A stretch of 64,000 nt of DNA from positions 27,481-91,480 of the forward strand of contig CAWKCA010000046.1 of assembly GCA_963848005.1 (NCBI GenBank). The letters are read 5' to 3'. Below, piece after piece: positions 4,876-42,759 of the stretch. Source of the DNA: an uncultured Candidatus Rokubacteria bacterium. GTDB taxonomy: Bacteria; Methylomirabilota; Methylomirabilia; Rokubacteriales; CSP1-6. The position numbers and the translations under genes are program-made. Each line of letters starts with the position of its first letter. The stretch's first letter is position 1. Below the pieces are notes generated by a model that saw nothing but the letters and a program-made list of their open reading frames with translations, ran no database searches and had not been told where the DNA came from.

Positions 4876-5973
4876 ATGAAGGTCACCGCCGCCGTCCTGT
4901 ACGAGGTCAAGAAGCCCCTGGTCATCGAGGAGGTCGAGCTGCTGGAGCCGGGGCCCCACGAGGTGCAGGTCCGCTGGGTCGCCAACGGCGTCTGCCACAG
5001 CGACCTGCACGTGATGACGGGCGACTCTCCCCATCCCCTGCCCGTGGTGCTGGGGCACGAGGCCGCCGGGGTCGTGGAGAAGGTGGGGCCGAGCGTGGAG
5101 AGCGTCAAGCCTGGCGACCACGTCTGCTCGAGCTACATCCCCTCGTGCGGCAAGTGCTGGTACTGCATCAGCGGCCAGCCCACCATGTGCGCGCTGCGCG
5201 ACAAGCCGCGCTGGTTCATGCTGGACGGCACCCCGCGCTTTCGGAAGAACGGCCAGGGGCTGCACCACTATCTGCAAGTTGCGGGGTACGCCACGCACTC
5301 GGTGCTGCCCGAGGAGAGCGTCATCCCCATCCGCAAGGACGCGCCGCTCGACGTCGCGTGCCTGGTGAGCTGCGGAGTCCTGGCGGGCGCCGGCCCCGTG
5401 TTCAACCGGGCCAAGGTGCCGCCCGGCGCCAGCGTGGCCGTGTTCGGCTGCGGCGGGGTGGGACTCAACACCATCCAGGCCGCGCGGATGGTGGGGGCCG
5501 GGAAGATCATCGCGGTGGACGTGATGAAGCAGAAGCTCGCGTGGGCCGAGGAATTCGGCGCCACTCACGTGGTCGACGCCTCCAAGGACGATCCCGTGGC
5601 GCGCGTGCAAGAGATCAGCGGTACCGGAGGCGTCGACTTCGCCTTCGAGGTCGTCGGGATGCAGAAGACGGTCGAGCAGGCCCTGCTCTCGACCCACCGG
5701 GGTGGCATGGCCGTGGTCGTCGGCGTCTGCCCCGCCGGCACCCGCCTGTCCATCGATCCGTCGCTGTTCCTACAGCAACGCATGCTGACGGGCACGTCGT
5801 TCGGCGGCGGCCATCAGCGCACCGACGTCCCCATGCTGATCGACCTGTTCATGACGGGCCAGTACAAGCTCCGCGAGCTGATCAGCCGGCGCGTGGGCCT
5901 CACCGACGTGAACCACGCCTACGAGCTGCTGCTCCAGGGAGAGGTGAAGCGCAGCGTCGTCGTGTACGAGTAG
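4876..5973 (+). CDS. Zn-dependent alcohol dehydrogenase (class III / S-(hydroxymethyl)glutathione dehydrogenase-like MDR family).
   Basis: The sequence carries GVCHSDLH, GHEAAGVVEKVG, the structural Zn cysteines CGKCWYC and the GxGxxG NAD-binding motif FGCGGVGL. A GGAGG RBS lies before the ATG. Confidence 0.85.
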   Translation: MKVTAAVLYEVKKPLVIEEVELLEPGPHEVQVRWVANGVCHSDLHVMTGDSPHPLPVVLGHEAAGVVEKVGPSVESVKPGDHVCSSYIPSCGKCWYCISGQPTMCALRDKPRWFMLDGTPRFRKNGQGLHHYLQVAGYATHSVLPEESVIPIRKDAPLDVACLVSCGVLAGAGPVFNRAKVPPGASVAVFGCGGVGLNTIQAARMVGAGKIIAVDVMKQKLAWAEEFGATHVVDASKDDPVARVQEISGTGGVDFAFEVVGMQKTVEQALLSTHRGGMAVVVGVCPAGTRLSIDPSLFLQQRMLTGTSFGGGHQRTDVPMLIDLFMTGQYKLRELISRRVGLTDVNHAYELLLQGEVKRSVVVYE

Positions 5974-5996
5974 GCGGCGAGCGGGGGGCCGCGCGC

Positions 5997-7154
5997 TCAG
6001 CCGGCGAACGTCCAGCGCGGGTCGGCGGCGGGAATCTCGACCTCGGGCAGCTTCAGCTCCCGGCGGACGATGTTGGCGCCGAGATTGATCGCCACCGACT
6101 TGTAGAAGGCGATGCGCCGCGCCAGCCCCTCGCGGCCGAAGCCACAATCAGTGGAGAGCACCAGGCGCTCGGGCGGCACGTACTCCAGCGCCTTGCGGAT
6201 GAGGGCCGCCACGACCTCCGGCGGCTCGACGGCCGCGGTGGAGTGGTTCACCACGCCGATGGCGATCTTCTTGTCGGTCCGGTGCTTCGCGAGGAGCGGA
6301 AGGTCCCGGCCGCCGGTGGACGCGCACTCGAGGGTGATCACGTCGGCGTTCGTCGCGAGCAGATAGGGGAGCGAGCGCTCGTACGACGGGCGCTCCCAGT
6401 GGAGCGGCTGCTGGTTGGGATTGCCCCAGCAGGTGTGGAGCCACACTTCCGTGTCGACGCCGGCGATCTCGCGATTGACGGCCTCCGTGAAGAACTCCAG
6501 GTCGCGGTCGGTGGCTCCGGTGGCCCCGGCAATGTGGTGCTGGGGCTCCTCGACCTGGATGACGCGGCAGCCCGCGGCGGCGACTTCCTTCAGCTCGGCG
6601 TTGAACACGTCGGCGAGGGCGAGGATCAGGTCGCGATCCGACGCGTAGTGGCGGTTCAGGAGCATCTTGGCCAGCGACTGGCCCGTGATGGCCCCGAACT
6701 TCACGGGGCGCGTGGTAAATCGCTGGGCCACCTTGAAGAGCGCCGCGTACTGCAGCGCGGCGTCGGTGACATCCTCGCCGACCACGGCAGGCTGATACGC
6801 TTCCATTACCTCGTACAGGATGTGGCCGGGCCGGAGCGCGCGCCAGCCACCACCGGTGGAACGATCCACGTGGCCGGTGATGCCGCGCAGGCGCTCGATC
6901 ACGTAGAAGAACCATGACTTGCCGCCCACGGTGAGGTCGAAGCGGGAGTCGCCGTCAGTGACGATGTCGAGCCCGGCCATCTCCTGCTCGCGGACGAGAC
7001 ACGCCACCGCGTCGAGGTATTGCTCGCGAAAGCGCGAATCACCGAGCGCGTCCTTGAAACCACGCCCGCGCAACTCCTCCGTGAACCAGTGGGGCCGCGG
7101 GTAGGAGCCGGTGATCGTGGTGGGCAGGACCGCGTCGCGGGTGGCGTTGAGCAT
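5997..7154 (-). CDS. MetE-like (cobalamin-independent methionine synthase C-terminal-domain family, UROD/MetE-like) methyltransferase. This is a single-domain form of about 386 aa.
   Basis: The protein MLNATRDAVLPTTITGSYPRPHWF...IQVEEPQHH...LHTCWGNP...STDCGFGREG shows MetE C-domain Zn-ligand and substrate motifs. The start is set at the ATG at 7154. The upstream part of the ORF is Arg-rich junk. Confidence 0.75.
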   Translation of the reverse strand: MLNATRDAVLPTTITGSYPRPHWFTEELRGRGFKDALGDSRFREQYLDAVACLVREQEMAGLDIVTDGDSRFDLTVGGKSWFFYVIERLRGITGHVDRSTGGGWRALRPGHILYEVMEAYQPAVVGEDVTDAALQYAALFKVAQRFTTRPVKFGAITGQSLAKMLLNRHYASDRDLILALADVFNAELKEVAAAGCRVIQVEEPQHHIAGATGATDRDLEFFTEAVNREIAGVDTEVWLHTCWGNPNQQPLHWERPSYERSLPYLLATNADVITLECASTGGRDLPLLAKHRTDKKIAIGVVNHSTAAVEPPEVVAALIRKALEYVPPERLVLSTDCGFGREGLARRIAFYKSVAINLGANIVRRELKLPEVEIPAADPRWTFAG

Positions 7155-9709: not shown

Positions 9710-10831
9710 ATGCGCGCGGAGCGTGACGGCGTCGACGTCGACGATCCCTGGGCGGCCATCGAGGTCTGCTACGAGCGGGGCTGGACCGACGGCCTGCCTG
9801 TCGTCCCACCGACCGAGGCGCTGGTGGAGCACACCCTGGCGGCCGGGCCGTGGACCCCCGATCACGTGCTCCTCTTCGAACCGGTCCGGGGCCGCGCGGT
9901 GACGGCCGAGAAGGCGGCGATCAACGCGGTGATGGCCGGCTGCCGGCCGGAGTACTTTCCCGTCGTCGGCGCCGCGCTCACCGCCCTCGGCGATCCCGCG
10001 TTCGAGCTGCACGGCCCGGCCACCAGCACGGGCGGCGCGGCCCTCATGGTGATCGTCAACGGCCCCGCCCGACTCCACCTCGGCGTCAACGGCACCGCCA
10101 ACCTCTTCGGGCCCGGGTTCCGCGCCAACGCCACGATCGGCCGTGCTCTGCGCCTGGTCCTTCTGAACTGTCTCGACTGCCGGCCGGGCGTGCTCGACAA
10201 GTCGACTCAGGGATGGCCGGGGAAATACTCGCTCTGCTTCGCCGAGAACGAGGAGGCGAGCCCTTGGGAGCCTCTCTCGGTGGCCCGCGGTTTCCGGACC
10301 GATCAGTCGACGGTGACCGTGTACGCCGCCGAATCCGGACACAACGTCCTCTCCCACGGGACGCGGTCCCCCGAACGGCTGCTCGCGCTCTTCGCCGACG
10401 CGATGGCGGGGCTCGGAAGCCTGAGCCCGGGGCGCTCCGTCATCGTGGTGGCGCCCGAGCACGCCCAGCATCTCCGCCAGGCCGGATGGGATCGCGCCCG
10501 CACGCAGGCGTGGCTCTACGAGCATGCCTGGCGCTCGCTCGGCGATCTCAAGCGCGCGGGAAAAGTCGAGCCGGCATTCTTCACCAACCCGAAACTCCTG
10601 GAATGGATCTACCGTGACGCCGACGGCAGTACGCCCGCGGGTCCGCTCGACCCCGATCTCGCCGAGCGCGTCACCGCGGCGGACGAGGTCGTTCGGGTGC
10701 ATCGCGGGCTCGGTCCTGAAGACATCCTGCTCTGCGTGGGCGGCGGCGAGGCCGGTGGCCATTCCGCCTTCTTTCCCTCGTGGAGTCGCGGTCGTTCCGT
10801 TCCCTTCGTCACCAGGGAGGTTCCGTCATGA
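9710..10831 (+). CDS. Conserved hypothetical protein (motif GWTDGLPVVPPTE), the gene partner of the UGSC selenoprotein.
   Basis: The 373-aa ORF is clean and non-repetitive. Its stop TGA overlaps the ATG of the next gene (ATGA, translational coupling). A degenerate paralogous fragment occurs at 54821-54913. No confident family assignment could be made from memory. Confidence 0.65.
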   Translation: MRAERDGVDVDDPWAAIEVCYERGWTDGLPVVPPTEALVEHTLAAGPWTPDHVLLFEPVRGRAVTAEKAAINAVMAGCRPEYFPVVGAALTALGDPAFELHGPATSTGGAALMVIVNGPARLHLGVNGTANLFGPGFRANATIGRALRLVLLNCLDCRPGVLDKSTQGWPGKYSLCFAENEEASPWEPLSVARGFRTDQSTVTVYAAESGHNVLSHGTRSPERLLALFADAMAGLGSLSPGRSVIVVAPEHAQHLRQAGWDRARTQAWLYEHAWRSLGDLKRAGKVEPAFFTNPKLLEWIYRDADGSTPAGPLDPDLAERVTAADEVVRVHRGLGPEDILLCVGGGEAGGHSAFFPSWSRGRSVPFVTREVPS

Positions 10832-11355
10832 TCCGCATCCTCGATCCCACCCTGCGCACGGCACTCTCGAGCACGGCCTCACGGGCCCCGCGCGCCCGGC
10901 ACCTCGCAGGGGCGACCATCGGCCTCCTCGCCAACGGGAAGTCCAACGGCAGCATGCTGCTCGACCGCATCGCAGACGTGCTGCGCGAGCGCCACGGCGT
11001 CGGCGAGGTGGTGCGCGTGGCCAAGACCAACGCGAGCGTCCCGGTAAGCGAGGACGACGCGGAGATGCTGGCCAAGCGTTGCGCGGCCGTCGTCACCGCC
11101 ATCGGCGACTGAGGGTCGTGCTCGTCGGGCAGTGTGCTCGACGCCATCTCGTTCGAGAAGCGCGGCATCCCGGCGGCGGTGATCATCACCGAACCCTTCA
11201 TTCCCACCGCCCTCGCCATGGCCGAGCTGTCGGGATTGCCCGGCTACCCCTGCGCGGTGATTCCGCATCCCGTCGGGAGCCTTGGCCCCGCCGAGGTGCT
11301 GGCCCGCGCCGAGGCTGTCGCCTCGCGGGTGGCGGAGCTGTTGCTGGGAAGCTGA
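10828..11355 (+). CDS. UGSC-family selenoprotein. The in-frame TGA at 11110-11112 is read as selenocysteine, giving a full product of about 175 aa.
   Basis: The ORF MIRILDPT...AVVTAIGD stops at TGA 11110. The same frame continues GSCSSGSVLDAISFEKRGIPAAVIITEPFIPTALAMAELSGLPGYPCAVIPHPVGSL...LLGS to TGA 11353-55. The joined sequence reads ...IGD-U-GSC..., the UGSC motif. A CGTCG...CGACG hairpin (SECIS candidate) starts about 12 nt after the TGA. The ATGA overlap with the upstream gene supports co-translation. Confidence 0.7.
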
Positions 11356-11461: not shown

Positions 11462-13457
11462 CTATCTGTCGACCAGGCGGAGGGCGCGGCGGACGGCGCG
11501 GCGGAGCTGTTCGGGATCCAGCGGCTTGGGCACCACGATGGCCCCGATCTCGTCGGTGAAGTCCGCCCGCTCCTGCCCGACGACGTCGCCCGTGAGAAAG
11601 ATGAAGCGGCGCGCGAGGCGTGGAAAGCGCCGCACGACGTCACGGTAGAGCTCGGGCCCGTCGGGGCCCGGCATCTTGATGTCGCAGATGATCAGCGCGT
11701 ACTCCCCTCCCTGCTCCAGTCGCTCGAGCGCCTGCGGCGCATCGAAGGCGGCATCCGCCCGGTGCCCGTCGAGAGCCAGGATGTCGGCGAGGACAGCGGC
11801 GATACCAGGATCGTCGTCGACGACCAGGATGCGCCGGCCGCGTTCGGCGGTCGGTTCGCCAGCGGCCTCCGGCATCTCCGCCCCGGCCGGAGCCGTCCCC
11901 ACCGGGATCTCGACGGTGAACACCGTCCCTTGACCGGACTCGGTCTCGAAGGTGATCGATCCGCCGTGTGCGTCCACGATGCTGCGCGAGAGCGAGAGCC
12001 CGAGTCCCGCCCCCTGCCCCGCCGCCTTGGTGGTCAAGAAGGGCCGGAAGATCCGGGGGCGAATGTCCTCCGGGATCCCGATGCCGTTGTCGCGGATATT
12101 ACTCGAAGGTCACCGCGGAGCGGCCCGGGTCGACGCCGGTGTGGAGCAGGATCCAGCGCGGCCGGGAGACGCCGCGCAGGGCGTCGATGGCGTTGGCGAT
12201 GAGGCTCACCGCGACCTGATGGAGCCCGTGCGCGTCGCCCCACACCTCGGGCAGCGCCTCGTCGAGCTGCCACCGGATCTCGACGTTATCTACCTGGAGC
12301 ACGTAGCCGAGAAGCTCGACCGCCTCGCGCAGAACCTGGTTGATCTGGACCGGGACGGCCTCCGCCGGGCGGCGGCGCCCGAGGGCGAGGAACTGCCGCA
12401 CGATGCCGGCGCAGCGCGTGGCAGCCTGGGCGAGGTGGTCGACGCGACCCGCGAGCGGGCCGGGTTGGAGCGCGCGCGCGAGGAGGTCCGCCTGCCCGAG
12501 CACGACGGAGAGTGGGTTCGCGAGCTGGTGGACGATGCCGGCCAGGAGCTGGCCCATCCCCGCGAGCCGCTCGGCCTGGTTGAGCGCATCCCGGCGGCGG
12601 GCGAGCTCCTCCTCGACCCGACGCCGCGCCGTCACGTCACGGGCCGTGACGACGAGGCCCACGACCTGCGGCTCGTGGGGCATGCTCGTCGCCACCCCCT
12701 CGAAGACGCGCCAGGATCCATCCTGGTGCCGGAGCTGGAACGTCAGGTCCTCCACGTGACCCCGCGCGTCGAGCTCCCGGGCGACCAGGGCGATCAGGTG
12801 GCCGACGTCCTCGGGGTGGAGGATCTCGACGAAGGGGCGGCCGATCAGGGCGGCGGGCGCGTACCCGAGGACGCGCCGCGCGGACGAGCTCACGTAGCGC
12901 ACGACCCCGCCCGCGTCGAGGAGGAAGACCACGTCGAGCGCGCTCGCCACCATCGACCGGAAGTGCGCCTCGGTGGCCTGCAGGGCCTCCTCCGCCTGCT
13001 TGCGGCTGGTGATGTCGAGGAAGGTCGCGGCGATGGCCGGCTGTCCGCGCCAGGAAGCCACGGACACGAGCGGCTCGATCCAGAACATCTGGCCGTCGCC
13101 CCGCACGGCCTGGAACTCGTAGCGGGGAGGCGCGGGATCGCCGCGACGCCGCGCCGCCGCGTAGCGCTGAAGGCGGAGTCGCTCATGAGGTGGCAGCCAG
13201 TCCCGGAGATCACGCCCGACGATGTCGTCCCCCCGGGCGTAGCCGGCGAGACGCGCGGCGGTGGCGTTGGCAAAGCAAACCACGAAGTCCTGGTGGATGC
13301 AGACGCCCTGGATCGACTCCTCGACGAGGACGGTGTAGAGCGACGTGTCGGCGGGTGGCGCGAGGGCTGCGATCGGGCTCACGGGTTCCGCCCGCTCGAG
13401 CTCGTCGAGCCGCTCCCGGAGGCGCCTGATCTCGTCTGCGGGGCGATCGTCGGCCAT
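11462..13457 (-). pseudogene. Hybrid sensor histidine kinase / response regulator (PAS-PAS-HisKA-HATPase_c-REC), disrupted by a TAA plus frameshift at about 12040-12100.
   Basis: The N-part 12099..13457 contains PAS domains, the H-box HQLANPL and the start of the ATPase (N box). It ends ...GRSAVTFE-TAA. The -1 frame then continues SSNIRDNGIGIPEDIRPRIFRPFLTTKAAGQGAGLGLSLSRSIV (G1/G2 boxes). A receiver domain RILVVDDDP...LIICDIKMPGPDG follows. The break sits in an AT-rich hexamer (gagTAATATccg) that is unusual for this genome. Confidence 0.7.
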
Positions 13458-15724: not shown

Positions 15725-15784
15725 CCGGGTAGACATCTCAGCCCGCTGCCGAAAGGCCTGACCGGGTAGACATCCTCAGCCCGC
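15716..15784. repeat. Direct repeat of about 27 bp (GGCCTGACCGGGTAGACATC(C)TCAGCCCGC) present twice, spanning both convergent stop codons.
   Basis: Copy 1 (15716-15743) overlaps the stop of the diiron gene. Copy 2 (15756-15784) overlaps the stop of the T1SS ABC gene on the opposite strand. Confidence 0.5.
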
Positions 15785-17932
15785 CCCATCGCGAACCAGG
15801 AGCCCGTCCTGAAGGCGGTGGAGGCGAGCGTAGTGCCCGTTCAGACGGAGCAGCGCCTCGTGCGACCCCTGCTCGACGAGGCGGCCCTGGTTCATGACCA
15901 GGATGCGATGGGCGGGCCGAAGCGTGCTGAGGCGGTGCGCGATGAGGAGCACCGTGCGGCCCCGGCACATCTGGGCCAGGTTGCGCTGGACAATCGACTC
16001 GGATTCGTAATCCAGGGCGCTGGTCGCTTCGTCGAAGATCAGGATCCGCGGATTGGCGATGAGAGCCCGCGCGATGGCGATGCGCTGGCGCTGACCGCCG
16101 GAGAGGGCCAGCCCATGCTCGCCGACCGGCGAGTCGTATCCATCGGGCAGCTCGCGGATGAACTCGTGCGCGCCGGCCAGCTCCGCCGCCCGCACCACCT
16201 GGTCCAGGGAAATCCCGGGATCGGCGAGGGCGATGTTCTCGCGCACGGAGCGGTTGAACAGAAAGCTCTCCTGGAGCACGACGCCGATCTGGCGCCTGAG
16301 CCAGGCGGGGTCGATGAGCGTGACGTCCAGACCGTCGACGAGCACCCGGCCATGCTCGGGCGGGTACAGGCGCTGGATCAGGCGTGCCACCGTGCTCTTG
16401 CCGGACCCGGACCGTCCGACGAGGCCAATGACCTCCCCGGGCGAAATATCGAAGGACATGCCGCGAAGAACCTCCGGGCCATCGGGGCGATAGCGGAAGA
16501 TCACCTCCTCGAAGGTGACGCGGCCGAGGAGCCGAGGGGGACTCGTCCAGCTCGGTCGGTGTGGTTCGGCCGGAGCGTTGAGCACGTCGCCCAGACGCTC
16601 CACCGAGATCCCGGCCTGCTGGAATTCCTGCCATATCTGGACCAGGCGCAACACCGGACCGCTGACCCGTCCGGCGAGCATGTTGAACGCCACGAGCTGG
16701 CCGATGGTGAGACGCCCGTCCATCACGAGCTGGGCCCCCGCCCAGACGATGGCGAGCGTGGTGATCTTCTGCGTCAGGGACGCCACCTGACCCGCACTGT
16801 TGATCAGCGTGAGGGCCCGAAAGCCGGCCCGCACGTAGCCCGCCAGGTGCTCTTCCCATCGCCGTTGCATCTCCGGCTCCACGGCCAGGGCCTTGACCGT
16901 GTGGATGCCGGTCACGGACTCGACCAGGAAGGCCTGGGTATCTGCGCCGCGATTGAACTTGTCGTTGAGGCGACCGCGGATGGCCGGGGTGATGGTCACC
17001 GAGAGCACCCCGTAGACGGGCAGCGCGCCGAGCACGAGCCAGGTCAGCGGGGGACTGTAGAAGTACATCGCCCCCACGAACACGACGGCGAAGAGCAGAT
17101 CGACGACGAGGGTCACGCTCGATCCGGTCAGGAACTGGCGGATCGTCTCCAGTTCCCTGACGCGCGCCACCGAGTCACCCACCCGGCGCGACTCGAAGTA
17201 CGCCAGGGGCAGGGCCAGAAGATGGCGGAACAGCTGGACCCCCAGCTCCACGTCGATCCGGCTCGAGGTGTGCGAGAACAGGTACGCGCGCAGCCCGCCC
17301 AGGACCGCCTCGAAGACGGTGAGCGCCAGCATGCCGACGGCCAGCACGTGGAGGGTGGTCAGCCCCTTGTGGACGAGGACCTTGTCGATCACCACTTGAA
17401 AGAACAGCGGGCTCACGAGGGCAAATACCTGAAGCGCCAGGGAGGCGAGCAGCACCTCCGAGAAGCACCGTCGGTACTTCACGATCGCGGGGAAAAACCA
17501 CGAGAAGCCGAATCGCGCGTTCCCGGACTGCGGAGAGCCGCGCCGGGTCAGGAGAATGACCTCGCCCGACCACGCCGGCTCGAAGGCTGACCGCGTCACG
17601 ACGAGGGGCCGCGGCGCCGTCGGGTCTTGCACCAGCACCGTGTCCGCATCGGCTCTGGCGAGGACGGTCCACTCGCCGTCGCGCATGCGCGCCAGGGCCG
17701 GGAGGGCCAGCACTCTCAGCCGGTCCCAACGGCTCCGGATGCATCGGGCCTTGAGGCCGAGCGAGCGGGCGGCGCGCAGCAACTCCGTCGCCTCGAACCG
17801 CCGGCCAGGCTTGCCGAACTCGCGCCGGAGCCGCTCGGCGTCGGCGGCGATCCCGAGAAATCGGCTCACGATCAGCAGGCCGACGAGCCCGCCGTCGACG
17901 TTGCCGGATGCGGACACGGATTCCTCGGGCAC
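15776..17932 (-). CDS. Type I secretion system permease/ATPase (HlyB family) with an N-terminal C39-like (non-catalytic) domain.
   Basis: The protein is 718 aa. The N-terminal roughly 130-aa domain lacks the C39 catalytic Cys, so it is a CLD as in RTX exporters. A 6-TM ABC membrane domain follows. Walker A is GRSGSGKST, the ABC signature is LSGGQRQR and Walker B is ILIFDEATSALD. A GTG start at 17932 has a GGAGGAG RBS. It lies 90 bp downstream of the giant RTX gene on the same strand. Confidence 0.85.
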   Translation of the reverse strand: MPEESVSASGNVDGGLVGLLIVSRFLGIAADAERLRREFGKPGRRFEATELLRAARSLGLKARCIRSRWDRLRVLALPALARMRDGEWTVLARADADTVLVQDPTAPRPLVVTRSAFEPAWSGEVILLTRRGSPQSGNARFGFSWFFPAIVKYRRCFSEVLLASLALQVFALVSPLFFQVVIDKVLVHKGLTTLHVLAVGMLALTVFEAVLGGLRAYLFSHTSSRIDVELGVQLFRHLLALPLAYFESRRVGDSVARVRELETIRQFLTGSSVTLVVDLLFAVVFVGAMYFYSPPLTWLVLGALPVYGVLSVTITPAIRGRLNDKFNRGADTQAFLVESVTGIHTVKALAVEPEMQRRWEEHLAGYVRAGFRALTLINSAGQVASLTQKITTLAIVWAGAQLVMDGRLTIGQLVAFNMLAGRVSGPVLRLVQIWQEFQQAGISVERLGDVLNAPAEPHRPSWTSPPRLLGRVTFEEVIFRYRPDGPEVLRGMSFDISPGEVIGLVGRSGSGKSTVARLIQRLYPPEHGRVLVDGLDVTLIDPAWLRRQIGVVLQESFLFNRSVRENIALADPGISLDQVVRAAELAGAHEFIRELPDGYDSPVGEHGLALSGGQRQRIAIARALIANPRILIFDEATSALDYESESIVQRNLAQMCRGRTVLLIAHRLSTLRPAHRILVMNQGRLVEQGSHEALLRLNGHYARLHRLQDGLLVRDGAG

Positions 17933-18021
17933 ACGTCTCCTCCGGAGGGCTGACGCCTGATGCCGCGCCCGCGATCTCGCCGCGGGGCGGTTCAGCGGTA
18001 GGTCCAGCTCAGCGAGGCGTT

Positions 18022-27776: not shown

Positions 27777-29099
27777 CTACGTCCCGTCGAACACGCGCTC
27801 CGCCGCCATGGCGCGGAATGCCCGCTCGTAGCTGCCGATCGTTCGCTCGATGTCCTCGTCGGTGTGGACGGCGGAGATCCAGCCGTGGTTGGGCGAGCAA
27901 TCCACGCCGTTGTTGAGCAACGCGCAGCGCAGCAGGTGATACAGCGCGCCTTTCTTCGGCCGATCCGGTCCGGCGAGCCCAGGGCGGCCGTCGAACGACA
28001 CGTGGTAGATCGACGCCTCGCCGTATATCTCGCCGGGCGCGCTCGCCCGTCGCCGCGCGTCGTTCAGCCCCTGGCGGAGCGCATCACCCAGCTTGCCCGC
28101 GTGCGCTTGCAGCGACGGATCCGACACCAGCTCGAGCGTGGCGATCCCGGCCGCCGCCGACATCGGGTTGGCGTTGAACGTCCCGGCGTGAGCCACGCGC
28201 CGCGTGCGATCCCACTCGGCGTCGCCACGATGGGCGAGCATCGACATGATCGCTGCCTGGCCGGTCAACGCGCCGCCGGGCAGGCCGCCTGCCACGATCT
28301 TGGCGAGGGTGGTGAGGTCCGGGGTGACGTCGAAGTATTGCTGCGCGCCACCGGGCGCGTAGCGGAAGCCGGTGATGACCTCGTCGAAGATCAGCACGAC
28401 ACCATGCTTGCGGGTGAGCGCGCGCAATTCATGCAGATATCCGGGAATCGTCGGGGTGGTGCCGGACTGACCGCCGGCCGGCTCGAGGATGATGGCGGCC
28501 ACGTCGCCCGCGTCGAAGGCCAGCTCGACGGCCTTGATGTCGTTGGCTGGGCACACCACCACGTGATCGAGGGTTCCCGCCGGCACTCCAGCCGAGATCG
28601 GCATCTCGTACGGCGGGTTGACGCCCACGGTGACGGCATCGTGCCAGCCGTGGAAGTGACCCGAGAGCTTCACCACCTTCGAGCGTCCGGTGTACGCGCG
28701 GGCCACGCGCATGGCGAGGTGCGTGGCCTCCGTGCCCGACATGGTGAAGCGCGTCAGCTCCGCGCTGGGGACGAGGCCGTTGACCAGCTCCGCCCAGCGG
28801 ATCTCCAGCTCGTGGCTGCCCCCCACGTGGGTGACGCGCGCCACCTGCTCCTGGACCGCCTTCACGACGGCCGGGTGGCAGTGACCGACGAAGAGGGCGC
28901 CGTGGCCCATCCAGTAGTCGACGTACTCGTGGCCGTCCACGTCCCACTTGCGGCTGCCCAGCGACCGCGCCACGTAGGTCCCGAACGGCAGCAGGTAGCG
29001 GATGTCGTGGGTGATGCCGCCCGGAATGGCCTGGCGGGCGCGCTCGGCCAGGGCGGCCGACGTCGGATGTTTAGCCCGGTAGTCCTCGAGGATAGTCAT
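27777..29099 (-). CDS. Class III pyridoxal-phosphate aminotransferase (glutamate-1-semialdehyde 2,1-aminomutase-like).
   Basis: The protein MTILEDYRAKHPTSAALAERARQAIPGGITHD...FDEVITGFR...PDLTTLAKIVAGGLPGGAL...GTFNANP has the class III AT motifs with the PLP Lys in TLAK. The ATG at 29099 has a GAAGGAAGG RBS. The long upstream extension of ORF 27777..30029 belongs to a different gene. Confidence 0.85.
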   Translation of the reverse strand: MTILEDYRAKHPTSAALAERARQAIPGGITHDIRYLLPFGTYVARSLGSRKWDVDGHEYVDYWMGHGALFVGHCHPAVVKAVQEQVARVTHVGGSHELEIRWAELVNGLVPSAELTRFTMSGTEATHLAMRVARAYTGRSKVVKLSGHFHGWHDAVTVGVNPPYEMPISAGVPAGTLDHVVVCPANDIKAVELAFDAGDVAAIILEPAGGQSGTTPTIPGYLHELRALTRKHGVVLIFDEVITGFRYAPGGAQQYFDVTPDLTTLAKIVAGGLPGGALTGQAAIMSMLAHRGDAEWDRTRRVAHAGTFNANPMSAAAGIATLELVSDPSLQAHAGKLGDALRQGLNDARRRASAPGEIYGEASIYHVSFDGRPGLAGPDRPKKGALYHLLRCALLNNGVDCSPNHGWISAVHTDEDIERTIGSYERAFRAMAAERVFDGT

Positions 29100-29102
29100 G
29101 GT

Positions 29103-30130
29103 CGCGTCGCCTTCCTTCGTGAGAGTGACCGTGGGCTCGACCGCGGTGAGGTCGACGGTGACGCCGACCGCGATGCGGCGTCCATGATACCGGAACCGGT
29201 GGCGATCCCGGAGTCCGCGGCAACCTGAAGGAGGCGCACGAACGCCGCGTGGACGTCGAGGCCCAGCCCGTCCACGGTGGCTTCGCGGCGGCGCGAAAGG
29301 CCGTCGATGGCCCCGGCCGTCCACACACGCCTCGATCACGCGTCGCTCGACCTCCGGCGTGTGAAGCAGCGCTTGCCCGGCGAGTCGGCCCAGCGCCGCC
29401 ACGATGCCGTACGCGCCCCAGTTCGACACGCCGGCCACCACGAGGTGATCGGTCTCGACCACGGTGGCGATACGAGTCATGAGCGGTCCGAGTCGCCGGA
29501 GTCGCACCCGCACCTTGCCCATGCCGATCTCGTTGCCACCGTCCCCCACCCCGATGGTCACCACGTGCGAGAGCGGGCGATCGGAGCCACGCGCACTTCG
29601 AACAGGCCGCCCGCGTACTGATCCGGGCTGGCGGACCCCGCTGCAAACAAACAGCTCGTCGATGGGGCGGTTCCACGCCGCCACGGAGGCACCGCGCGCA
29701 TTGAGGTAGTCGCCCTCGCGGCTGCGCCCTGGGCGCTCGATGGCGATCATGTGAGTCGGGCGCTCGCGGCGCAGCAGGGCGGGCGCCACACCGTCACCCT
29801 CCGGATACACCATGATGTCGGCCCGCTGGCCCAGCGCCGTCAGGGCTGACGTCAGAATCGGCACGTTCACCGGATCGGTGACGTAGCGCACCCGCGCGCC
29901 GAGCACGCTCAGGCGCGTGTCCGAGCACGGCGGCCCCGGGGGGCCCGTCGGTCTCGGGCGCGTCGGCGGCCACGGCGAAGCCTGTGGTGATGAGCACGCG
30001 CCGCGCGCCGAGCAGCGCGCGCGCGGCATCCTGCGCCGCGCCGGGGGTGAAGAAGGCGGCGATGCCGCGCCCTCCGGGATCGAGGGCGAGCAGATGATCG
30101 ATGGGGTCCCAGGGACGCGACACGCCCGAG
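29103..30130 (-). pseudogene. DUF4392/D-glutamate-cyclase-like protein, fragmented over at least two frames.
   Basis: Frame A (ORF 29794..30306) gives ...DPGGRGIAAFF...VLITTGFAVAADAPETDGPPGAAVLG. Frame B (the upstream part of ORF 27777..30029) gives ...YLNARGASVAAWN...IGVGDGGNEIGMGKV...LVVAGVSNWGAYGIVAALG. Together these are the family motifs in the correct order but in different frames. A CCCCGGGGGGCCC homopolymer lies at about 29933. Confidence 0.5.
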
Positions 30131-33742: not shown

Positions 33743-34984
33743 ATGCCGCGCGCGCCGCGCGTCCTGACGATGATCATGGCGGGAGGCAAGGGGGAGCGCC
33801 TCTTTCCGCTCACGCGCGATCGCTCGAAGCCATCCGTACCGTTCGGCGGGCGCTACCGCATCATCGACTTCGTCATCTCCAACCTCGTCAACTCCGGCTT
33901 CTTCTCCATGTACGTGCTCGTGCAGTACCGGTCGCAGAGCCTCATCGAGCATCTGCGGATGGCCTGGCGCACGACGGGCATTCTCAGCGACGCCTTCATC
34001 GCAGTGGTGCCGCCCCAGCAGCGCGCGGGCGAGGCCTGGTACCGGGGGACGGCGGACGCCGTGCTGCAGAACCTGCACCTGGTCGACGACTTCGCCCCCG
34101 ACGTCGTGGCCGTCTTCGGCGCCGACCACATCTACCGGATGGATATCAGCCAGATGCTGGCCTTCCACCTGGAGTCGGGGGCCGACGCCACGGTGGCCGC
34201 GCGTCCCGTGCGCCTGGAGCAGGGGTCCGCCTTCGGGGTGCTGGGCGTGGACCGGCAGCATCGCGTGGTGGCGTGGGACGAGAAGCCCACGGCGCCCACC
34301 GCCATGCCCGACGATCCCGCGCGCGCCCTCGTCTCCATGGGCAACTACGTCTTCCGGCGCGGCGCCCTGGTCGATGCGCTGCTCGACGACGCGCGGCGCA
34401 GTACGGACCACGACTTCGGGCGCTCCATCATCCCGGAGATGGTGCCGGGCGGCCGGGTGTTCGCCTACGACTTCCAGCAGAACGAGGTGCCGGGGGTGAA
34501 GCCCTACGAGGAGCCCGCCTACTGGCGCGACGTGGGCACCATCGAGAGCTACTGGGACGCGCACATGGACATCCTCGGCGAGTCCCCGCGCTTCGACCTC
34601 GACAACCGCACGTGGCCGATCCAGGCCGGCGCGCATCCCGGCCCCCCGGCCCGCTTCATCGGGGGCGACGTGGAGAACTCGATGATCGCCGAGGGATGTC
34701 TCATCAAGCGCGCCACCATTCGCAACTCGATCCTCGGCCGCAACGTGTGGGTGAACGAGGGGGCGCGCATCGAGGATTCGATCGTCATGGACTACACCTC
34801 GGTGGGCAAGGGCGCCCACATCCGCCGCGCCATCATCGACCGCTACAACATCATCCCGGCCGACCACGAGGTCGGCCTCGATGCCGGGCGGGACCGCGTG
34901 CGCTTCCACCTTGACCCATCGGGGCTCGTCGTGGTGCCGCGGGGAGGGCGGCGCGAATATCTCCTCCGTCTCGAGGAGCTCTAG
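33743..34984 (+). CDS. glgC: Glucose-1-phosphate adenylyltransferase.
   Basis: The protein MPRAPRVLTMIMAGGKGERLFPLTRDRSKPSVPFGGRYRIIDFVISNLVNSG... has the GlgC signatures, including the C-terminal left-handed beta-helix region. The ORF is intact. Confidence 0.9.
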   Translation: MPRAPRVLTMIMAGGKGERLFPLTRDRSKPSVPFGGRYRIIDFVISNLVNSGFFSMYVLVQYRSQSLIEHLRMAWRTTGILSDAFIAVVPPQQRAGEAWYRGTADAVLQNLHLVDDFAPDVVAVFGADHIYRMDISQMLAFHLESGADATVAARPVRLEQGSAFGVLGVDRQHRVVAWDEKPTAPTAMPDDPARALVSMGNYVFRRGALVDALLDDARRSTDHDFGRSIIPEMVPGGRVFAYDFQQNEVPGVKPYEEPAYWRDVGTIESYWDAHMDILGESPRFDLDNRTWPIQAGAHPGPPARFIGGDVENSMIAEGCLIKRATIRNSILGRNVWVNEGARIEDSIVMDYTSVGKGAHIRRAIIDRYNIIPADHEVGLDAGRDRVRFHLDPSGLVVVPRGGRREYLLRLEEL

Positions 34985-37366
34985 TGGCCGCCGACCCCGC
35001 TTCGTCGCCGTCCACGGGCACTTCTACCAGCCGCCCCGCGAGAACCCCTGGCTCGAAACCGTGGAGGTGCAGGACTCCGCGGCCCCCGCCCACGACTGGA
35101 ACGCGCGGGTCACCGAGGAGTGCTACGCGCCCAACACCGCGGCCCGGCGACTGTCCGCGGATAACCGCGTCATCGGCATCGTCAACAACTTCGAGAAGAT
35201 TTCCTTCAACGTGGGGCCGACGCTCATGGCGTGGCTGGCCCGGCACCGCCCCGATGTCCACCGGAGCATCGTCGAGGCGGACCGGGCCAGCCGGGAGGCC
35301 CGGGGGCACGGCAACGCCATCGCACAGGTCTACAACCACATGATCATGCCGCTGGCCCCGCGGCGCGACCGGATCACCCAGGTGCGCTGGGGCATGGCGG
35401 ACTTCCGCGCCCGATTCGGGCGGGATCCCGAAGGGATGTGGCTGCCCGAGACGGCCGTCGACAGCGAGACGCTGGAGATACTGGCCCAGGCAGGTCTTCA
35501 GTTCACCATCCTGGCCCCGCACCAGGCCTCGCGCATACGGCCGGTCGCCGGCGGAGACTGGCAGGAGGTCGGCGAGACCATCGACCCCAGCCGCGCCCTA
35601 TCGCTGGACGGGTCCCTCCGGCCACACCTTGGCGCTGTTCTTCTACGATGCGCCCATCTCCCGGGCCATCGCCTTCGAGAACGTCCTCCAGTCCGGGGAG
35701 GCCTTCGCCACTCGACTGCGCGGCGCCTTCCACGACGAGCGCCCGAGGCCACAGCTCGTCCACTGCGCCACGGACGGCGAGTCCTACGGCCACCACAGTC
35801 GCTTCGGCGAGATGGCGCTGGCCGACGCCCTCGAGCGGATCGAGACGACGGGGGCCGCCATCCTGACCAACTACGCGACGTTTCTCGCCCTGAACCCGCC
35901 CGACCACGAGGTGGAGATCCGCGAGAACACGTCGTGGAGCTGCGCCCACGGGGCGGAGCGCTGGCGCCGCGACTGCGGCTGCCGCATGGCCCCGGACACG
36001 CGGCAGGACTGGCGCGCGCCCTGCGCGGGTCCCTCGACTGGCTGGGGGCCGAGATCGACGCCTTCTACGAGGCGCGTGTCTCGGGACTTCTCAAGGATCC
36101 GTGGGAGGCGCGCGATGCTTACATCGAGGTGATCGTGGCGCGCGAGCCCGCCGTCCTCGACCGCTTCTTCGCCGCCCAGGCCTCGGCCCCGCTCGAGGCG
36201 GCGGCCCGAGTCGAGGCGCGGCGACTGCTGGAGATGCAGCGCCAGCGACTCTTGATGTTCACCTCCTGCGGCTGGTTCTTCGACGACCTCGCCGGGCTGG
36301 AGCCCGTGCAAGACCTCCGCTACGCGGCCATGGCCCTGCAGTATCTGCGGGAGCTGGGTGGCGCCGACCTCGAGCCTGCGTTCCTGGATCGCCTGCGCGC
36401 GGCAGTCAGCAACGATCCGGAAGAGGGCACGGGGGCCGACGTGTACCGCCGGCGCGTGCGGCCAGCGGCGGCGGACGTGCGCCGCCTCACCGCGCACTAC
36501 GCCATCAACGGCCTCTTCGAGACACCGCCCCGCGAGGCCCGCGTCTACGCCTACCAGGTCACACGCCTCGACGAGACCAGCGCGGAGTACAGGGACACGG
36601 CGCTGCGCGTGGGCCGGGTGCGCGTCAGCTCGGAGCTGACCGGGCAGGTCCGCGACGCCCTCTACGCCGTGGCCCATTTCGGCGGACACGACATCACGTG
36701 CGGCGTACGCCTCAGCGACGATCCCGCCGCGTACGCGGCCCTCCAGCGAGACCTGCTCGATCGCTACGCCCGCCGCAGCCTCAGCGAGGTGGTGCGCGGC
36801 TTCGACGCCGCCTTCGGCCGCGAGACCTTCTCGGTGACCGATCTCTTCCTCGAAGAGCGCCGGCGCGTCCTCGCCGCCCTCCTCGCCAAGGTGGTGGCCC
36901 TCCATGAGTCCACGGTGCGTCACGTGTGGGACGAGACTCACGCCCTGCTCGACTATCTGCAGGCGGCCGACGTGCCACTCCCGGAGACCCTCGGCGTGGT
37001 CGCCCGGCGCGTCCTGGAGCAGGACGTGCTCTCGGCGCTCGAGGAGGCAGCCCGCCGACTCATCATCCCCGCGCGCGTCTTCGAGCTGCTCGCCCACGCC
37101 CGCAAGCTCCATCTCGACCTGAACCTCGTCGCCGCACGCCCGCTCATCCGCAGCGCGGTGGAGCGCGCCATCGACCGCGTCGCCCAGACGCCGACGGAGG
37201 CTGCCGTGGCCCAGGCCGTGGTGCTGGTGGAGGCTGCTCAACGACTGCGGCAGCGGCTTCGGACACTGGGCCGCGCAGAACCGCTTCTTTCGCGCTCTGG
37301 ACGGAGCGGCCGGAGGCGCGCGACGTGCTGGCTCCGCTCGCTCACGTCCTGGGATTCGCGACATGA
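34984..37366 (+). pseudogene. GH57-family alpha-amylase/4-alpha-glucanotransferase-like protein with C-terminal DUF3536, with at least 3 frameshifts.
   Basis: The GTG at 34984 overlaps the glgC stop and is immediately out of frame. Adding one C to the CCCC run at 34996-34999 gives MAADPRFVAVHGHFYQPPRENPWLE, a canonical GH57 N-terminus. The reading continues in frame A to about 35600. Frame B gives FFYDAPISRAIAFENVLQ...HCATDGESYGHH. Frame A resumes with LDWLGAEIDAFYEAR...CGWFFDDLAGLEP.... A final shift leads to ...WTERPEARDVLAPLAHVLGFAT-TGA at 37366. Confidence 0.65.
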
Positions 37367-37409
37367 CGCACAAGGGCGCCCTCCAGTCCCCACGCCGGAC
37401 CGGCCTGCC

Positions 37410-39380
37410 TTGAAGCAGACGGTGATCATCGAGCACGTTGAGCCCACCGTCGACGGAGGTCGCTATCCGGCCAAGCGCGAGGTCGGCGACCTCCTCGAGG
37501 TGACCGCCGACATCCTTCGCGAGGGGCACGACGTGCTGGTGGCCTTTCTCCACTACCGTGGGCCCGGCGCGACCCGGTGGCAAGAGACGCCGATGCGCCT
37601 CGTGGACAACGACCGCTGGGCCGGCGAGTTCCCGCTGGAAGAGAACGGTCGCTATCGCTTCTTCATCGAGGCCCTGGCCGACCCCTTCCTCTCCTGGCTG
37701 GCCGACCTCGCCAAGCGCACGGAGGCCGGGCAGGACGTGGCCAGCGAGCTCTCCGAAGGCCGCGCCCTCATCGACGCCGCCGCACGTCGCGCCCGCGGCG
37801 TCGATGCCCGCGAACTGCGCGCCATGGGCGAGCGCCTGGCGGCCTCGCCCAGCCAGGCCGACGCTGTCGCCGTGGCCCAGGAAGCGGCGCTGGCCGAGCT
37901 CATGGCCCGTCATCTCGACCGGGGCAGGCCACCCGCACCGAGCGCGACTACGAGATCGTGGTCGACCGCGTGCGCGCGCGCTTTGCCGCCTGGTACGAGA
38001 TGTTCCCGCGCTCGGCGCGCGGCGACGGCCAGCACGCGACCTTCAAGGACGCCGAGCGGGAGCTGGAGCGGATCGCCGCGATGGGGTTCGACGTCGTCTA
38101 CCTGCCACCGATCCACCCCATCGGACGCGCCTTCCGCAAGGGGCGCAACAATGCGCTAACTCCCGCCCCCGGCGATCCCGGCAGCCCCTGGGCCATCGGG
38201 GGCGAAGAGGGCGGCCACACCGCCGTGCACCCCCAGCTCGGCACCCTGGACGACTTCGATCACTTCGTGGAGGCCGCGTCGGGGTTGGGACTCGAGGTGG
38301 CCCTCGACTTCGCCATCCAGTGTTCGCCCGACCACCCCTACGTTCGCGAGCACCCCGAGTGGTTCTTCCACCGGCCCGACGGCACCATCAAGTACGCGGA
38401 GAATCCGCCCAAGAAGTACCAGGACGTCTACCCGCTGAACTTCTACAGTGCCGATCCCGGACCGCTGTGGGAGGAGATGCGCCGCATCGTCGAGTTCTGG
38501 GTGGCCCACGGGGTGCGGACCTTCCGCGTGGACAACCCCCACACCAAGCCGGTGAAGTTCTGGGAATGGCTGATCGAGAGCGTGCAGACCTCGCGGCCGG
38601 ACGTCATCTTCCTCGCCGAGGCCTTCACCCGGCCCAAGGTGATGAAGGTCCTGGCCAAGGCGGGCTTCACCCAGTCCTACACCTACTTCACCTGGCGCAA
38701 CGAGAAGCGGGAGCTGACCGAGTACTTCGAGGAGATCACGGAGCCCCCGGTGGCCGAGTACTTCCGCGGCCACCTGTGGCCGAACACGCCCGACATCCTG
38801 CACGAGACCTTGCAGAAGGGCGGGCGGGCCGCCTTCACGATGCGGCTGGTGCTCGCCGCCACGCTCTCGTCCCTCTACGGGATGTATAGCGGCTACGAGC
38901 TGTGCGAGAACGTGCCCGTCGGCGAGGGCTCGGAGGAGTATCTGAACTCCGAGAAGTACGAGATCAAGGCGCGCGACTGGGATGCGCCCGGCAACCTCGT
39001 CGACTTCGTCACCACCATCAACCGGATCCGCCGCGAGAATCGCGCCCTGCACCTCTACCGGAATCTGGCGTTCTACGGCGCCGATGACCCCAACATCGTC
39101 TGGTACGGCAAGATGACGCCAGACCGCGACAACGTGGTCTTCGTGGCGGTGAATCTCGACCTCGACGGCCCGCACGCCTCGCCGGTGGACATGCCGCTCG
39201 CCGAGCTGGGGCTCGGCCCCGGCGAGCCGTACGTGATGCACGAGCTGCTGAGTGATCGCCGCTACGAGTGGCGCGGGCCCCGCGGCTCCGTGGTGCTCGA
39301 TCCCGCCGTCGACTCCGCCCAGATCTTCGCCTTCCAGCCGCGCGTGATGTCACTGCTCTACCGTCGGCCGCCGCCCTCGC
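37410..39380 (+). CDS. glgE: Alpha-1,4-glucan:maltose-1-phosphate maltosyltransferase GlgE, with one frameshift near 37920.
   Basis: A TTG/GTG start at about 37410-37422 gives (M)KQTVIIEHVEPTVDGGRYPAKREVGDLLEVTADILREGHDVLVAFLHYRG.... After ...ARHLDRGRP the reading shifts to ...RTERDYEIVVDRVRARFAAWYEMFPRS...MGFDVVYLPPIHPIG...FRVDNPHTKP...FTWRNEK. The C-terminal end after ...FAFQPRV is uncertain. Confidence 0.75.
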
Positions 39381-41200: not shown

Positions 41201-42747
41201 TCAGAAGCCCAGGGCCGCGCCGTCGCCACGCGGATCCGCGCCACCCCACAGCGTCCCGTCGCGCCACACGATGGCGTGCGCGTGGCCGACCCGATGGAGG
41301 AAGTCCGACTCCACCAGCAGGTGGTGTCCACGGCGCCGGAGGGCGGCGAGCACGCGCCGCGACACGCGGCCCTCGATGCGCGTGATGTCCGGCGGGTCGT
41401 CGGGCAGGAACGCGCCGATGAGAAAGCGCGGGCGCTCGATGGCCTCCTGAGGATCCATGCCGTAGTCGAGAAGGTTCGTGAGGACTTGCAGATGGAACAT
41501 GGCCTGGCCGTTGCCGCCCATGGTGGCGAATCCCGCCACGGGCTGGTCGTCCCGCGTCACGATGGAGGCCATCAGCGTGTGGAAGGGGCGCTTGCCCGGC
41601 GCCAGGGCGCTGGGATGCGCGGGATCCGTGCGAAAGTGGCGCCCGCGGTTGTGGAGCACGATGCCCGTGCCCGGCGGGACCACGCCCGAGCCGAAGGAGT
41701 GGAACAGGCTCTGGATCACGCTGATCACGTTGCCCTGGCCGTCGGCGACCACGAAGCCGGTGGTGTCTCCCTCCGGATCGCCGGCTTCATAGCTCTGGGC
41801 CTTCTTGCGGTCCAGGGCGCGCCGGCGATGCTCCGCGTACGTCTTGGCCAGGAGCCCCTCCACCGGCACGGAGGCGTGGGCGGGATCGCCGATCCAGCGA
41901 TCGCGATCGGCGTAGGCAAGCTTGGCCGTCTCGATCAGCAGGTGCAGGTGCTCGACGGAGTGCACGCGATGCCGCGCGAGGGACAGGCCCTCGAGGATGT
42001 TCAGGCCGATGAGCGCGGCCAGCCCCTGCGTGGGAGGCGGCGTCTCGTAGACCGTCAGCCCTCGATATGTCGTGGAGAGCGGCTCGCCCCACTCACCCTG
42101 GTGCGCGGCGAGATCGCCGGCGGTCACGAAGCCGTCGGCGTCCAGCCGACGCGCGATCGCCTCCGCGACGCGTCCCCGGTAGAACAGGTCCGGCCCCTCC
42201 GCGGCGAGGTCGCGAAGGGTCCGGGCGAGATCCGCCTGCACGAGCACCTCGCCCTGCGCCGGCGGCCGGCCGCCCGGGACGAAGATGCGATGCCACTCGG
42301 CATCATCGAGGCGCGGCGCCATCTCCTCCGCGGCCTGGCTGACCAGCCGCGTGCACGGAAAGCCGTGCTCCGCGTAGTGAATGGCCGGCGCGAGGAGCTC
42401 GCCCAGGGTCCGGGTGCCGAAGCGCTCGAGAAGCATGGCCCACGCCCGGACGCAGCCGGGGACGCTCACGGTGGCCGGGCCTGCCATGGGCAGGTCGGCC
42501 AGTCCGCGGCGGTGGAGCTCGTCGAGGCTCGCGCGACTGCCCGAGCGTCCGGCGCCGTTCAAGAAGTGCACCCGACGGGTGGCCGCCTCGTAGTAGAGGC
42601 AGAAGAAATCACCGCCCACGCCGCAGCAGTACGGCTGCGTCACCGCGAGCACCGCGTTGACGGCGACGGCGGCGTCGGCGACGGTCCCACCGGACTTCAG
42701 CAGCTCGACCCCGGCCAAAGTGGCCAGGGATGGCCCGAGGCCACCAT
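41201..42747 (-). CDS. ggt: Gamma-glutamyltransferase, with a single frameshift at the CCC run about 42727-42729.
   Basis: The ATG at 42747 gives MVASGHP in one frame. Then ...LATLAGVELLKSGGTVADAAVAVNAVLAVTQPYCCGVGGDFF...TTGFVVADGQGNVISVIQSL...GGADPRGDG continues in the adjacent frame. Inserting one C (CCC to CCCC) yields GMVASGHPLATLAGVELL, the GGT N-terminal signature. The catalytic Thr (TTGF) is present. Confidence 0.75.
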
Positions 42748-42759
42748 CCCCTCGCGTCC

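Follow-up and report, generated by a model that had tools for sequence, protein, structure and literature searches.

A 'UGSC-containing protein' has been on record, with its function unknown, since 2007 (PMC1976440). In the GOS metagenome the family was counted at 255 selenocysteine (Sec) forms against 21 cysteine forms, and the same 2008 paper proposed a thioredoxin-like fold for it (PMC2398784). That work also described, in its Fig. S1A, a fusion of UGSC with a conserved, functionally unassigned domain from aquatic organisms, under the name 'UGSC/Unknown_1' (PMC2398784). Reviews of 2022 and 2026 still count the UGSC family as functionally uncharacterised. A second point of reference is the D-proline reductase of C. 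difficile, in which the Sec at position 151 of PrdB attacks a substrate bound to the large subunit PrdA, and which is regenerated by a separate electron-transfer protein (PMC11229817). Here we describe a UGSC-family selenoprotein gene, and the 373-residue partner gene that overlaps its start, in a stretch of 64,000 nucleotides (nt) from an uncultured Candidatus Rokubacteria bacterium (GenBank assembly GCA_963848005.1, contig CAWKCA010000046.1, positions 27,481 to 91,480 of the forward strand). This whole stretch is referred to as the window, and positions are given within it unless a different locus is named. The comparative evidence supports both the decoding of an in-frame UGA as Sec and a functional pairing of the two genes, and the pair probably encodes a two-subunit redox enzyme.

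The features of the locus are as follows.

9710 to 10831, plus strand: partner gene, 373 residues, defined by its open reading frame (ORF) and translation; it belongs to a very large family without a curated model.
9938 to 9943, plus strand: codons of partner Gly77 (invariant) and Cys78 (nearly invariant) in alignment A1, of 74 sequences.
10235 to 10237, plus strand: codon of partner Cys176, nearly invariant in alignment A1, in the motif KYxxCxAE.
10814 to 10820, plus strand: Shine-Dalgarno sequence AGGGAGG, 7 nt before the UGSC ATG and within the 3' end of the partner gene, read from the sequence.
10828 to 10831, plus strand: ATGA overlap, in which the UGSC ATG (10828-10830) meets the partner stop codon TGA (10829-10831), read from the sequence.
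10828 to 11355, plus strand: UGSC-family selenoprotein gene, 175 residues with Sec as residue 95 and the stop codon at 11353-11355, from translation and profile scores.
11110 to 11112, plus strand: UGA read as selenocysteine U95, the start of the U-G-S-C motif (11110-11121), a TGA conserved in homologues.
11123 to 11143, plus strand: Sec insertion sequence (SECIS) hairpin, with a stem of 9 base pairs (bp; 11123-11131 with 11135-11143) and the loop GUG (11132-11134), from folding and comparison.
11126 to 11131 with 11135 to 11140, plus strand: conserved 6-bp core of the SECIS stem, from comparison of homologues.

The original prediction was that reading through the TGA at 11110-11112 yields a single protein of 175 residues containing ...TAIGD-U-GSC-SSG..., and translation confirms this. 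The frame is open from the ATG at 10828 to the TGA and then for 80 further codons, and the joined protein reads ...AVVTAIGD-U-GSC-SSGSVLDAISFE... Scored against profile hidden Markov models (HMMs) with U entered as C, it reaches 143.1 bits for NCBIfam NF041046, 'UGSC family (seleno)protein' (cut-off 125), and 189.1 bits for Pfam PF24696, 'UGSC' (cut-off 25), which places it in the family as had been proposed. The PF24696 match spans model positions 1 to 171 of 172, straight across the TGA, and the NF041046 match likewise spans it. The two halves of the joined frame have a third-position G+C of 0.91 and 0.89, a bias typical of real genes here (the window is 69% G+C overall, rising to about 86% at the third codon positions of its genes).

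The motif TAIGD-U-GSC occupies residues 90-98 of the window protein, at the position usual for the family, and C95, G96, S97 and C98 are invariant in alignment A3. The majority form of this region is U-x-x-C-x-x-C-x-x-H. The window protein belongs to a subgroup with UGSCSSGSVL, which is without the third cysteine and the histidine present in most UGSC members. What the window adds is one more member of a selenoprotein family that was already described, rather than a selenoprotein of a new kind.

The Sec codon was followed across 80 loci from species-representative genomes, fetched by way of an alignment of partner homologues, and their six-frame translations were searched with the window UGSC protein. 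Of the 71 partner-linked UGSC genes found, 70 have TGA as the homologous codon and one has TGC. Each of the 71 hits has exactly one in-frame TGA and no further stop; thus the possibility that homologues terminate at this codon, raised along with the original prediction, is answered by a frame that continues in all of them. The close relatives L082 and L083 likewise have TGA, bringing the TGA homologues to 72 in all. The hosts comprise Dehalococcoidia and other Chloroflexota, Alpha-, Beta- and Gammaproteobacteria, Methylomirabilota, Acidobacteriota, Binatia, Actinomycetes and Poribacteria. Since the TGA is conserved with conserved coding sequence on either side of it, Sec decoding is supported, and on this comparative basis we take the in-frame UGA at 11110-11112 to be a real selenocysteine codon. 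When the window was scanned for further in-frame TGAs with coding-like sequence on both sides, two gene junctions were the only hits.

The obvious competing explanation is that the TGA truly ends the gene, or is a sequencing error or the lesion of a pseudogene, leaving fragments of 94 and 73 residues or nothing functional. Several genes of the window do look frameshift-broken (the histidine kinase at 11462-13457, the aminoimidazole ribonucleotide (AIR)-synthase-related gene at 42780-43706 and the P-type ATPase at 44446-47297), and neither a Sec machinery gene nor a tRNA-Sec is seen in the window. However, these remaining lesions are frameshifts and not in-frame stops, whereas the TGA stands in 72 independent homologues of many phyla, in one continuous frame with the protein conserved on both sides, and is followed by a hairpin specific to the TGA forms. 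The preponderance of Sec over Cys forms in the GOS counts (255 against 21; PMC2398784) points the same way. These comparative data effectively exclude a true stop or sequencing error, and we regard this explanation as highly improbable.

It is the hairpin that provides the second line of evidence for Sec decoding. Bacterial SECIS elements have a consensus in which a hairpin lies about 11 nt past the UGA, with G-U in the apical loop; the bulged U found in the upper stem of the E. coli model element is particular to that element and not a general bacterial feature. A stem-loop had been predicted about 12 nt past the UGA of the window gene. It is CGUCGGGCA-GUG-UGCUCGACG and starts at 10 nt, close enough to that estimate, and its loop carries G-U as in the consensus. 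The folding energy of the 61-nt region is ordinary for its G+C (z = -0.14), and for this reason the significance of the hairpin rests on conservation and not on energy. An in-register hairpin is shared by the other TGA homologues, including L082 and L083. Across 69 distinct sequences the pairing of the 6-bp core has almost no exceptions, and standard pairs fill 86.3% of cells, against 17-53% when the 3' partner is slid by 1-3 columns. The covariation score is 0.140, compared with 0.068 in shuffles, and was reached by 0 of 500 shuffles. Double compensatory changes are found in L042 (CGUGGA...UCCACG) and L047 (CGGCCA...UGGCCG).

The G and U of the loop never vary in these 69 sequences, since serine at that place is without exception encoded by AGT, and the cysteine that six sequences have instead by TGT; AGT is kept even in G+C-rich genomes, the window included. 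The cysteine forms serve as a negative control. Full-length Cys forms of UGSC exist, and so do the TGC homologues that the original prediction suggested looking for: the four available with DNA (L034, L084, L085 and L086) are all without the hairpin and use other serine codons. The hairpin matches no Rfam family at gathering or relaxed thresholds. Taken together, the comparisons support the view that the downstream hairpin behaves as a SECIS.

The second part of the original prediction concerned the upstream gene, which was said to overlap the UGSC start at an ATGA and to form a functional pair with it. The 373-residue gene and its overlap are present as described, with the Shine-Dalgarno sequence ahead of the UGSC ATG, an arrangement that suggests translational coupling of the two genes. 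The pairing is general. A UGSC gene lies inside the fetched flanks at 72 of 81 partner loci, mostly directly downstream and on the same strand; three of the nine loci that have none end at a contig edge. The gap between the genes is mostly 40 nt or less, and the genes overlap in 13 loci (by 4 nt in 9 of the 58 scored, by 1 nt in 3 more, and by a longer stretch in one). The three close relatives L001, L082 and L083, at 76-86% identity, have wholly different flanks, with the pair and its 4-nt overlap retained. A conserved third gene around the pair was searched for, and none was found. The GMC oxidoreductase gene immediately upstream in the window was considered as part of the unit and discarded, as it is not kept even in these three loci.

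Natural fusions give independent evidence. When the partner family is sampled by its 150 best cluster representatives, 36 (24%) prove to be fused to UGSC: seven carry a full N-terminal UGSC domain, 23 start just past the Sec position and six end just before it. As the 23 that start after and the six that end before are what gene-caller cuts at the UGA of Sec fusions would give, the fusions occur in both orders. Adjacency and natural fusion in both orders thus support the conclusion that the partner is a near-constant companion of UGSC and that the pairing, as read from these comparisons, is functional.

It could be argued instead that UGSC is a general redox carrier or antioxidant, and that the upstream gene is a frequent neighbour with no physical or catalytic coupling to it. 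In the literature UGSC has indeed been seen as a thioredoxin-like redox protein whose function is unknown (PMC2398784), and six partner genes have no UGSC gene nearby. This is hard to reconcile with fusions in both orders in 24% of the sampled partner clusters, which exclude a merely coincidental neighbour, or with the presence of UGSC beside the partner at 72 of 81 loci although the flanks differ even in close relatives. In addition, stop and start codons of the two genes overlap, and no third gene is conserved around the pair. We therefore consider mere neighbourhood improbable, and retain a functional pair.

The remaining neighbours are variable, and include luciferase-like monooxygenases, short-chain dehydrogenases/reductases, GMC oxidoreductases, CoA-transferases, NHL-repeat proteins and ABC or TTT transporters (most of them assigned by eye). 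Paralogous pairs are also seen: several loci (L031, L042 and L045) have two partner plus UGSC pairs within a few kb, and two partner loci each come from OX638345.1 and CBDBMT010000003.1. The varied catabolic neighbours and the paralogous pairs together suggest an enzyme family whose members may differ in their small-molecule substrates.

One practical consequence of the in-frame UGA is that these genes are annotated wrongly. It had been anticipated that a gene caller would truncate the selenoprotein and call a second short frame after it, and the public calls indeed split UGSC into pieces of 94-95 and 80-82 residues in L001, L082 and L083 (the split calls being at 11119-11670 in L001, 9131-9415 in L082 and 9116-9673 in L083, in the coordinates of those loci). 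In the databases, the UGA of a fused UGSC domain likewise marks the start or the end of many partner-family proteins. The splitting of UGSC and the truncation of fusions at the UGA are a systematic annotation error.

The partner itself belongs to a family not yet named. Searched against Pfam and NCBIfam, as had been recommended, the 373-residue protein has zero matches, and the 74 diverse partner-family sequences of alignment A1 show no recurrent weak matches to either collection. It has at least 8,000 homologues, all labelled hypothetical, and the family comprises 4,984 clusters at 50% identity (expectation value (E) 1e-3 or better). The closest named sources are metagenome-assembled genomes of Candidatus Limnocylindria (Chloroflexota), at 77-81% identity. 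The window protein has GWTDGLPVVPPTE at residues 24-36, and the conserved motifs of the family are GWTDGLPVVPPT (24-35), NAVMAGC (72-78), RANATIGRA (138-146) and PGKYxxCxAExEExSPW (169-186). The invariant or nearly invariant residues in A1 include Asp27, Thr65, Asn72, Gly77, Cys78, Asn140, Arg145, Cys176, Glu179 and Trp186. This conservation makes Cys78 a candidate redox or active-site cysteine, and a functional role may be proposed for Cys176 as well. Some proteins of about 700 residues (P0165, P0166, P0172, P0176, P0189 and P0264) contain two or three partner-matching stretches, and are maybe tandem duplications.

AlphaFold2 gives a confident model of the partner (predicted local distance difference test (pLDDT) 93.6, predicted template modelling (TM) score 0.93). 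A Foldseek search of the PDB with this model has as its best match the alpha chain of a class I Fe-S fumarate hydratase (7xky_A), at E 7e-4, with TM-scores of 0.26-0.32 and 8% identity; 'Toblerone fold' cyclic amide hydrolases follow at E of about 1e-2, with TM-scores below 0.2. By sequence or profile search, the PDB yielded nothing for the partner. The weak 'Toblerone fold' matches prompted a search for internal repeats in the partner, which were rejected with hhalign probabilities below 1%. At the sensitivity of Foldseek against the PDB, the modelled partner fold is one without a close solved relative.

For UGSC, sequence and profile searches of the PDB gave only noise, and the closest full-length Cys homologue, P0125 (47% identical to the window UGSC protein), was used for an AlphaFold2 model. 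This has a pLDDT of 89.9 and a five-stranded β-α-β topology; among solved structures it comes closest to azoreductase, WrbA, flavodoxin and ArsH (TM-scores 0.45-0.59). The UGSC fold is accordingly predicted to be flavodoxin-like and not thioredoxin-like, in disagreement with the proposal of 2008. In the model, C92 (equivalent to U95) lies directly before helix 93-108 and C95 is in the first turn, so that the Cys/Sec residue caps helix 3 after strand 3. As modelled, this placement is the classic redox C-x-x-C geometry at the N-terminus of a helix.

Further indications of redox function come from relatives of the pair. In some partner proteins the UGSC domain is replaced by an N-terminal AhpC/TSA-like or CxxC thioredoxin-like domain, identified by Pfam in P0294 and by inspection in P0280, P0297 and P0305. 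In the Cys-type operons of actinomycetes, whose partners are 55-56% identical to the window partner, the partner start is overlapped by 4 nt by a thioredoxin gene (L084, Nonomuraea) or by a thioredoxin-reductase-like gene with a CATC motif (L086). In L004 a thioredoxin-reductase-like gene follows directly after UGSC. Separately, we note that in a relative of Microbacterium invictum (L085) the start of the Cys-type UGSC gene is overlapped by an 88-residue ORF (5738-6004) that Pfam does not recognise; in size this ORF resembles PrdH, the maturation factor of proline reductase.

There is in addition a weak but recurrent similarity to the Sec subunits of proline and glycine reductases. Among 20 UGSC members, 12 match TIGR04483 (PrdB), 11 TIGR01917 (GrdB), 8 NF040794 (GrdF) and 2 TIGR01918, with E ranging from 1e-3 to 10 and the best at about 1e-3. 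In the window protein, residues 78-125 align with positions 131-178 of the PrdB profile, placing U95 near profile position 148, as estimated from a weak match; C. difficile PrdB has its Sec at residue 151 (PMC11229817). The domain replacements, the thioredoxin and thioredoxin reductase operons, the C-x-x-C geometry and this likeness to PrdB and GrdB all suggest thiol/selenol redox chemistry.

On this basis we propose that the locus is a two-gene module encoding a heteromeric redox enzyme, made up of a Sec subunit and a dedicated partner and fed by thioredoxin, a reading that we consider probable though far from secure. The SelB-type SECIS would recode the UGA at 11110-11112 to selenocysteine, and the partner would be the substrate-binding or catalytic subunit, with Asp27, Cys78, Arg145, Cys176 and Glu179 as its conserved residues. 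In a first step, Sec95 would act as nucleophile or reductant on a substrate held by the partner or on an oxidised cysteine. The adduct would then be resolved by Cys98 to give an Se-S bond: because Sec95 caps helix 3 and Cys98 lies one turn later, the two could form a redox-active selenenylsulfide. The thioredoxin system would finally re-reduce this bond. The nearest mechanistic analogue would be PrdB/PrdA of D-proline reductase, or GrdB/GrdE of glycine reductase. The selenoprotein is a known one, and the pairing, though real, has been little described; what we infer is the chemistry, including the formation of a complex, the direction of electron flow, the roles of the partner cysteines and the PrdB-like mechanism.

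The main alternative for the chemistry is that the pair binds a metal or iron-sulfur centre, in place of a dithiol/selenol relay. Here the U/C-x-x-C(-x-x-C) motif together with partner Cys78 and Cys176 would ligate a cluster, and the partner would be a hydro-lyase-like enzyme or a cluster acceptor. Such a role is suggested by the resemblance of G-D-C-G-S-C-S-S in UGSC to the cluster-binding G-A-C-G-S-C-P-S-S of Nfu (local match to 2z51, E = 1), although that match is not significant. Of 20 Cys-type UGSC proteins, 7 carry a fused NifU/Nfu-like domain, as does P0258. The fumarate hydratase match of the partner model is also to an Fe-S enzyme, but its TM-scores and its 8% identity are low, and the partner has two conserved cysteines compared with the three used by class I hydro-lyases. 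Most UGSC members do have a third cysteine and a histidine just past the motif; the third cysteine is absent from the window protein and its entire subgroup (SSGSVL). The replacement of UGSC by peroxiredoxin- or thioredoxin-like domains, and the operon linkage to thioredoxin and its reductase, fit thiol redox better. A metal site is therefore unlikely in our view, if clearly less so than a mere neighbourhood of the two genes, and we continue to favour a thioredoxin-fed redox enzyme.

Several observations weigh against the enzyme as proposed. The window contains no thioredoxin-system gene beside the pair, and such a gene is nearby in only a minority of loci. Six partner genes lack a nearby UGSC gene. 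The match of the window UGSC protein to TIGR04483 reaches 14.8 bits, with a cut-off of 300, and covers about 48 residues; none of the 74 partner sequences shows similarity to PrdA or GrdE in searches with HMM models. With respect to decoding, the 64-kb window, which is the part of the source genome covered here, holds a single tRNA (Phe) and no tRNA-Sec. There is no recognisable selA, selB or selD among the window ORFs scanned, which were not all of its ORFs; the AIR-synthase-related gene at 42780-43706 is not assigned to selD. Finally, the most variable pair of the hairpin (columns 22 and 32 of alignment A2, window positions 11128 and 11138) is G.U or A-U in some sequences and U-A in others. 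Its codons are those of UGSC residues 101 and 104 (6 and 9 after Sec), which co-vary between Gly/Ser with Leu and Cys with His, and the covariation of this pair may be selected at the protein rather than the RNA level.

Other genes of the window deserve a brief description. Three appear to be frameshifted, all on the minus strand: a PAS-HisKA / HATPase_c-receiver histidine kinase (11462-13457); an AIR-synthase-related gene of the PurM/SelD superfamily (42780-43706), which runs into a gamma-glutamyltranspeptidase ORF (41201-43354); and a CopA-like P-type ATPase spread over three frames (44446-47297). This suggests either assembly indel errors or pseudogenes. At 49318-52215 (minus strand) a 965-residue ORF combines domains of PBP2 (PBP_dimer and Transpeptidase) with RodA/FtsW, and is apparently a natural fusion of elongasome transpeptidase and glycosyltransferase. 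A protein of 1,953 residues (15776-23883, minus strand) combines an M23 peptidase domain with 14 matched RTX calcium-binding repeats, and adjoins an ABC exporter with a C39 peptidase domain. At 27777-30029 (minus strand) a 750-residue ORF has a D-glutamate cyclase-like domain together with a class III aminotransferase. On the plus strand, a 1,092-residue ORF (34881-38159) has GH57, DUF3536 and GlgE N/S domains, and lies within a glycogen-metabolism cluster.

The pairing makes the question of UGSC function experimentally approachable. UGSC now has a near-constant and specific partner, from a family of thousands of clusters without a Pfam or NCBIfam model; this partner is often fused to UGSC or to thiol-redox domains; and cultured actinomycetes (Nonomuraea and Microbacterium) carry Cys forms in operons with thioredoxin genes.

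It remains to compare the locus with the systems described at the outset. The window protein is a full-length representative of the UGSC family of Zhang and Gladyshev (ABI76733.1 from Hyphomonas neptunium being one example); it is of the Sec form that is also dominant in the family, and has no structural difference from it apart from its UGSCSSGSVL subgroup traits. Its hairpin is like the SelB-binding SECIS of the E. coli fdhF type in being placed within the coding sequence shortly past the UGA, with G-U in the apical loop; it differs in that the stem is uninterrupted, with no bulged U in its upper part, and the loop is of 3 nt. The GOS 'UGSC/Unknown_1' protein is a fused gene, whereas the window has separate genes with overlapping stop and start codons. 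Unknown_1 is probably the same domain as the 373-residue partner.

The closest functional parallel is with PrdA/PrdB, GrdE/GrdB, GrdF and GrdH, where, as in the window pair, a small Sec subunit with U-x-x-C is encoded beside a larger subunit, which binds the substrate in the reductases and presumably does so here. The likeness extends to the weak recurrent HMM similarity, which is centred on the Sec site, and to the thioredoxin-system genes found in the operons of some relatives of the UGSC pair. There are also differences: UGSC has 175 residues compared with about 240 for PrdB, and the window pair has no GrdA, GrdC, GrdD or PrdC-like gene. The hosts of UGSC pairs are, we presume, mostly aerobic soil and marine heterotrophs, unlike the amino-acid-fermenting anaerobes that have the reductases. 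We make no assignment to the PrdB/GrdB families, because the scores are far under the cut-offs, the partner is unrelated to the pyruvoyl proproteins and the hosts are apparently aerobic; the resemblance, drawn by analogy, would be one of function. A broader suggestion, which we put forward tentatively as the less likely outcome, is that these pairs are a widespread and unrecognised class of Se-dependent two-subunit reductases in aerobic soil and marine bacteria, parallel to PrdAB and GrdBE and with thioredoxin as reductant. If so, the Sec subunit would attack a substrate on a large subunit of previously undescribed fold, and the many paralogues per genome would reflect different small-molecule substrates. 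More speculatively still, the partner Gly77-Cys78 could be a site of cysteinolysis that makes a pyruvoyl group, by analogy with T420|C421 of PrdA.

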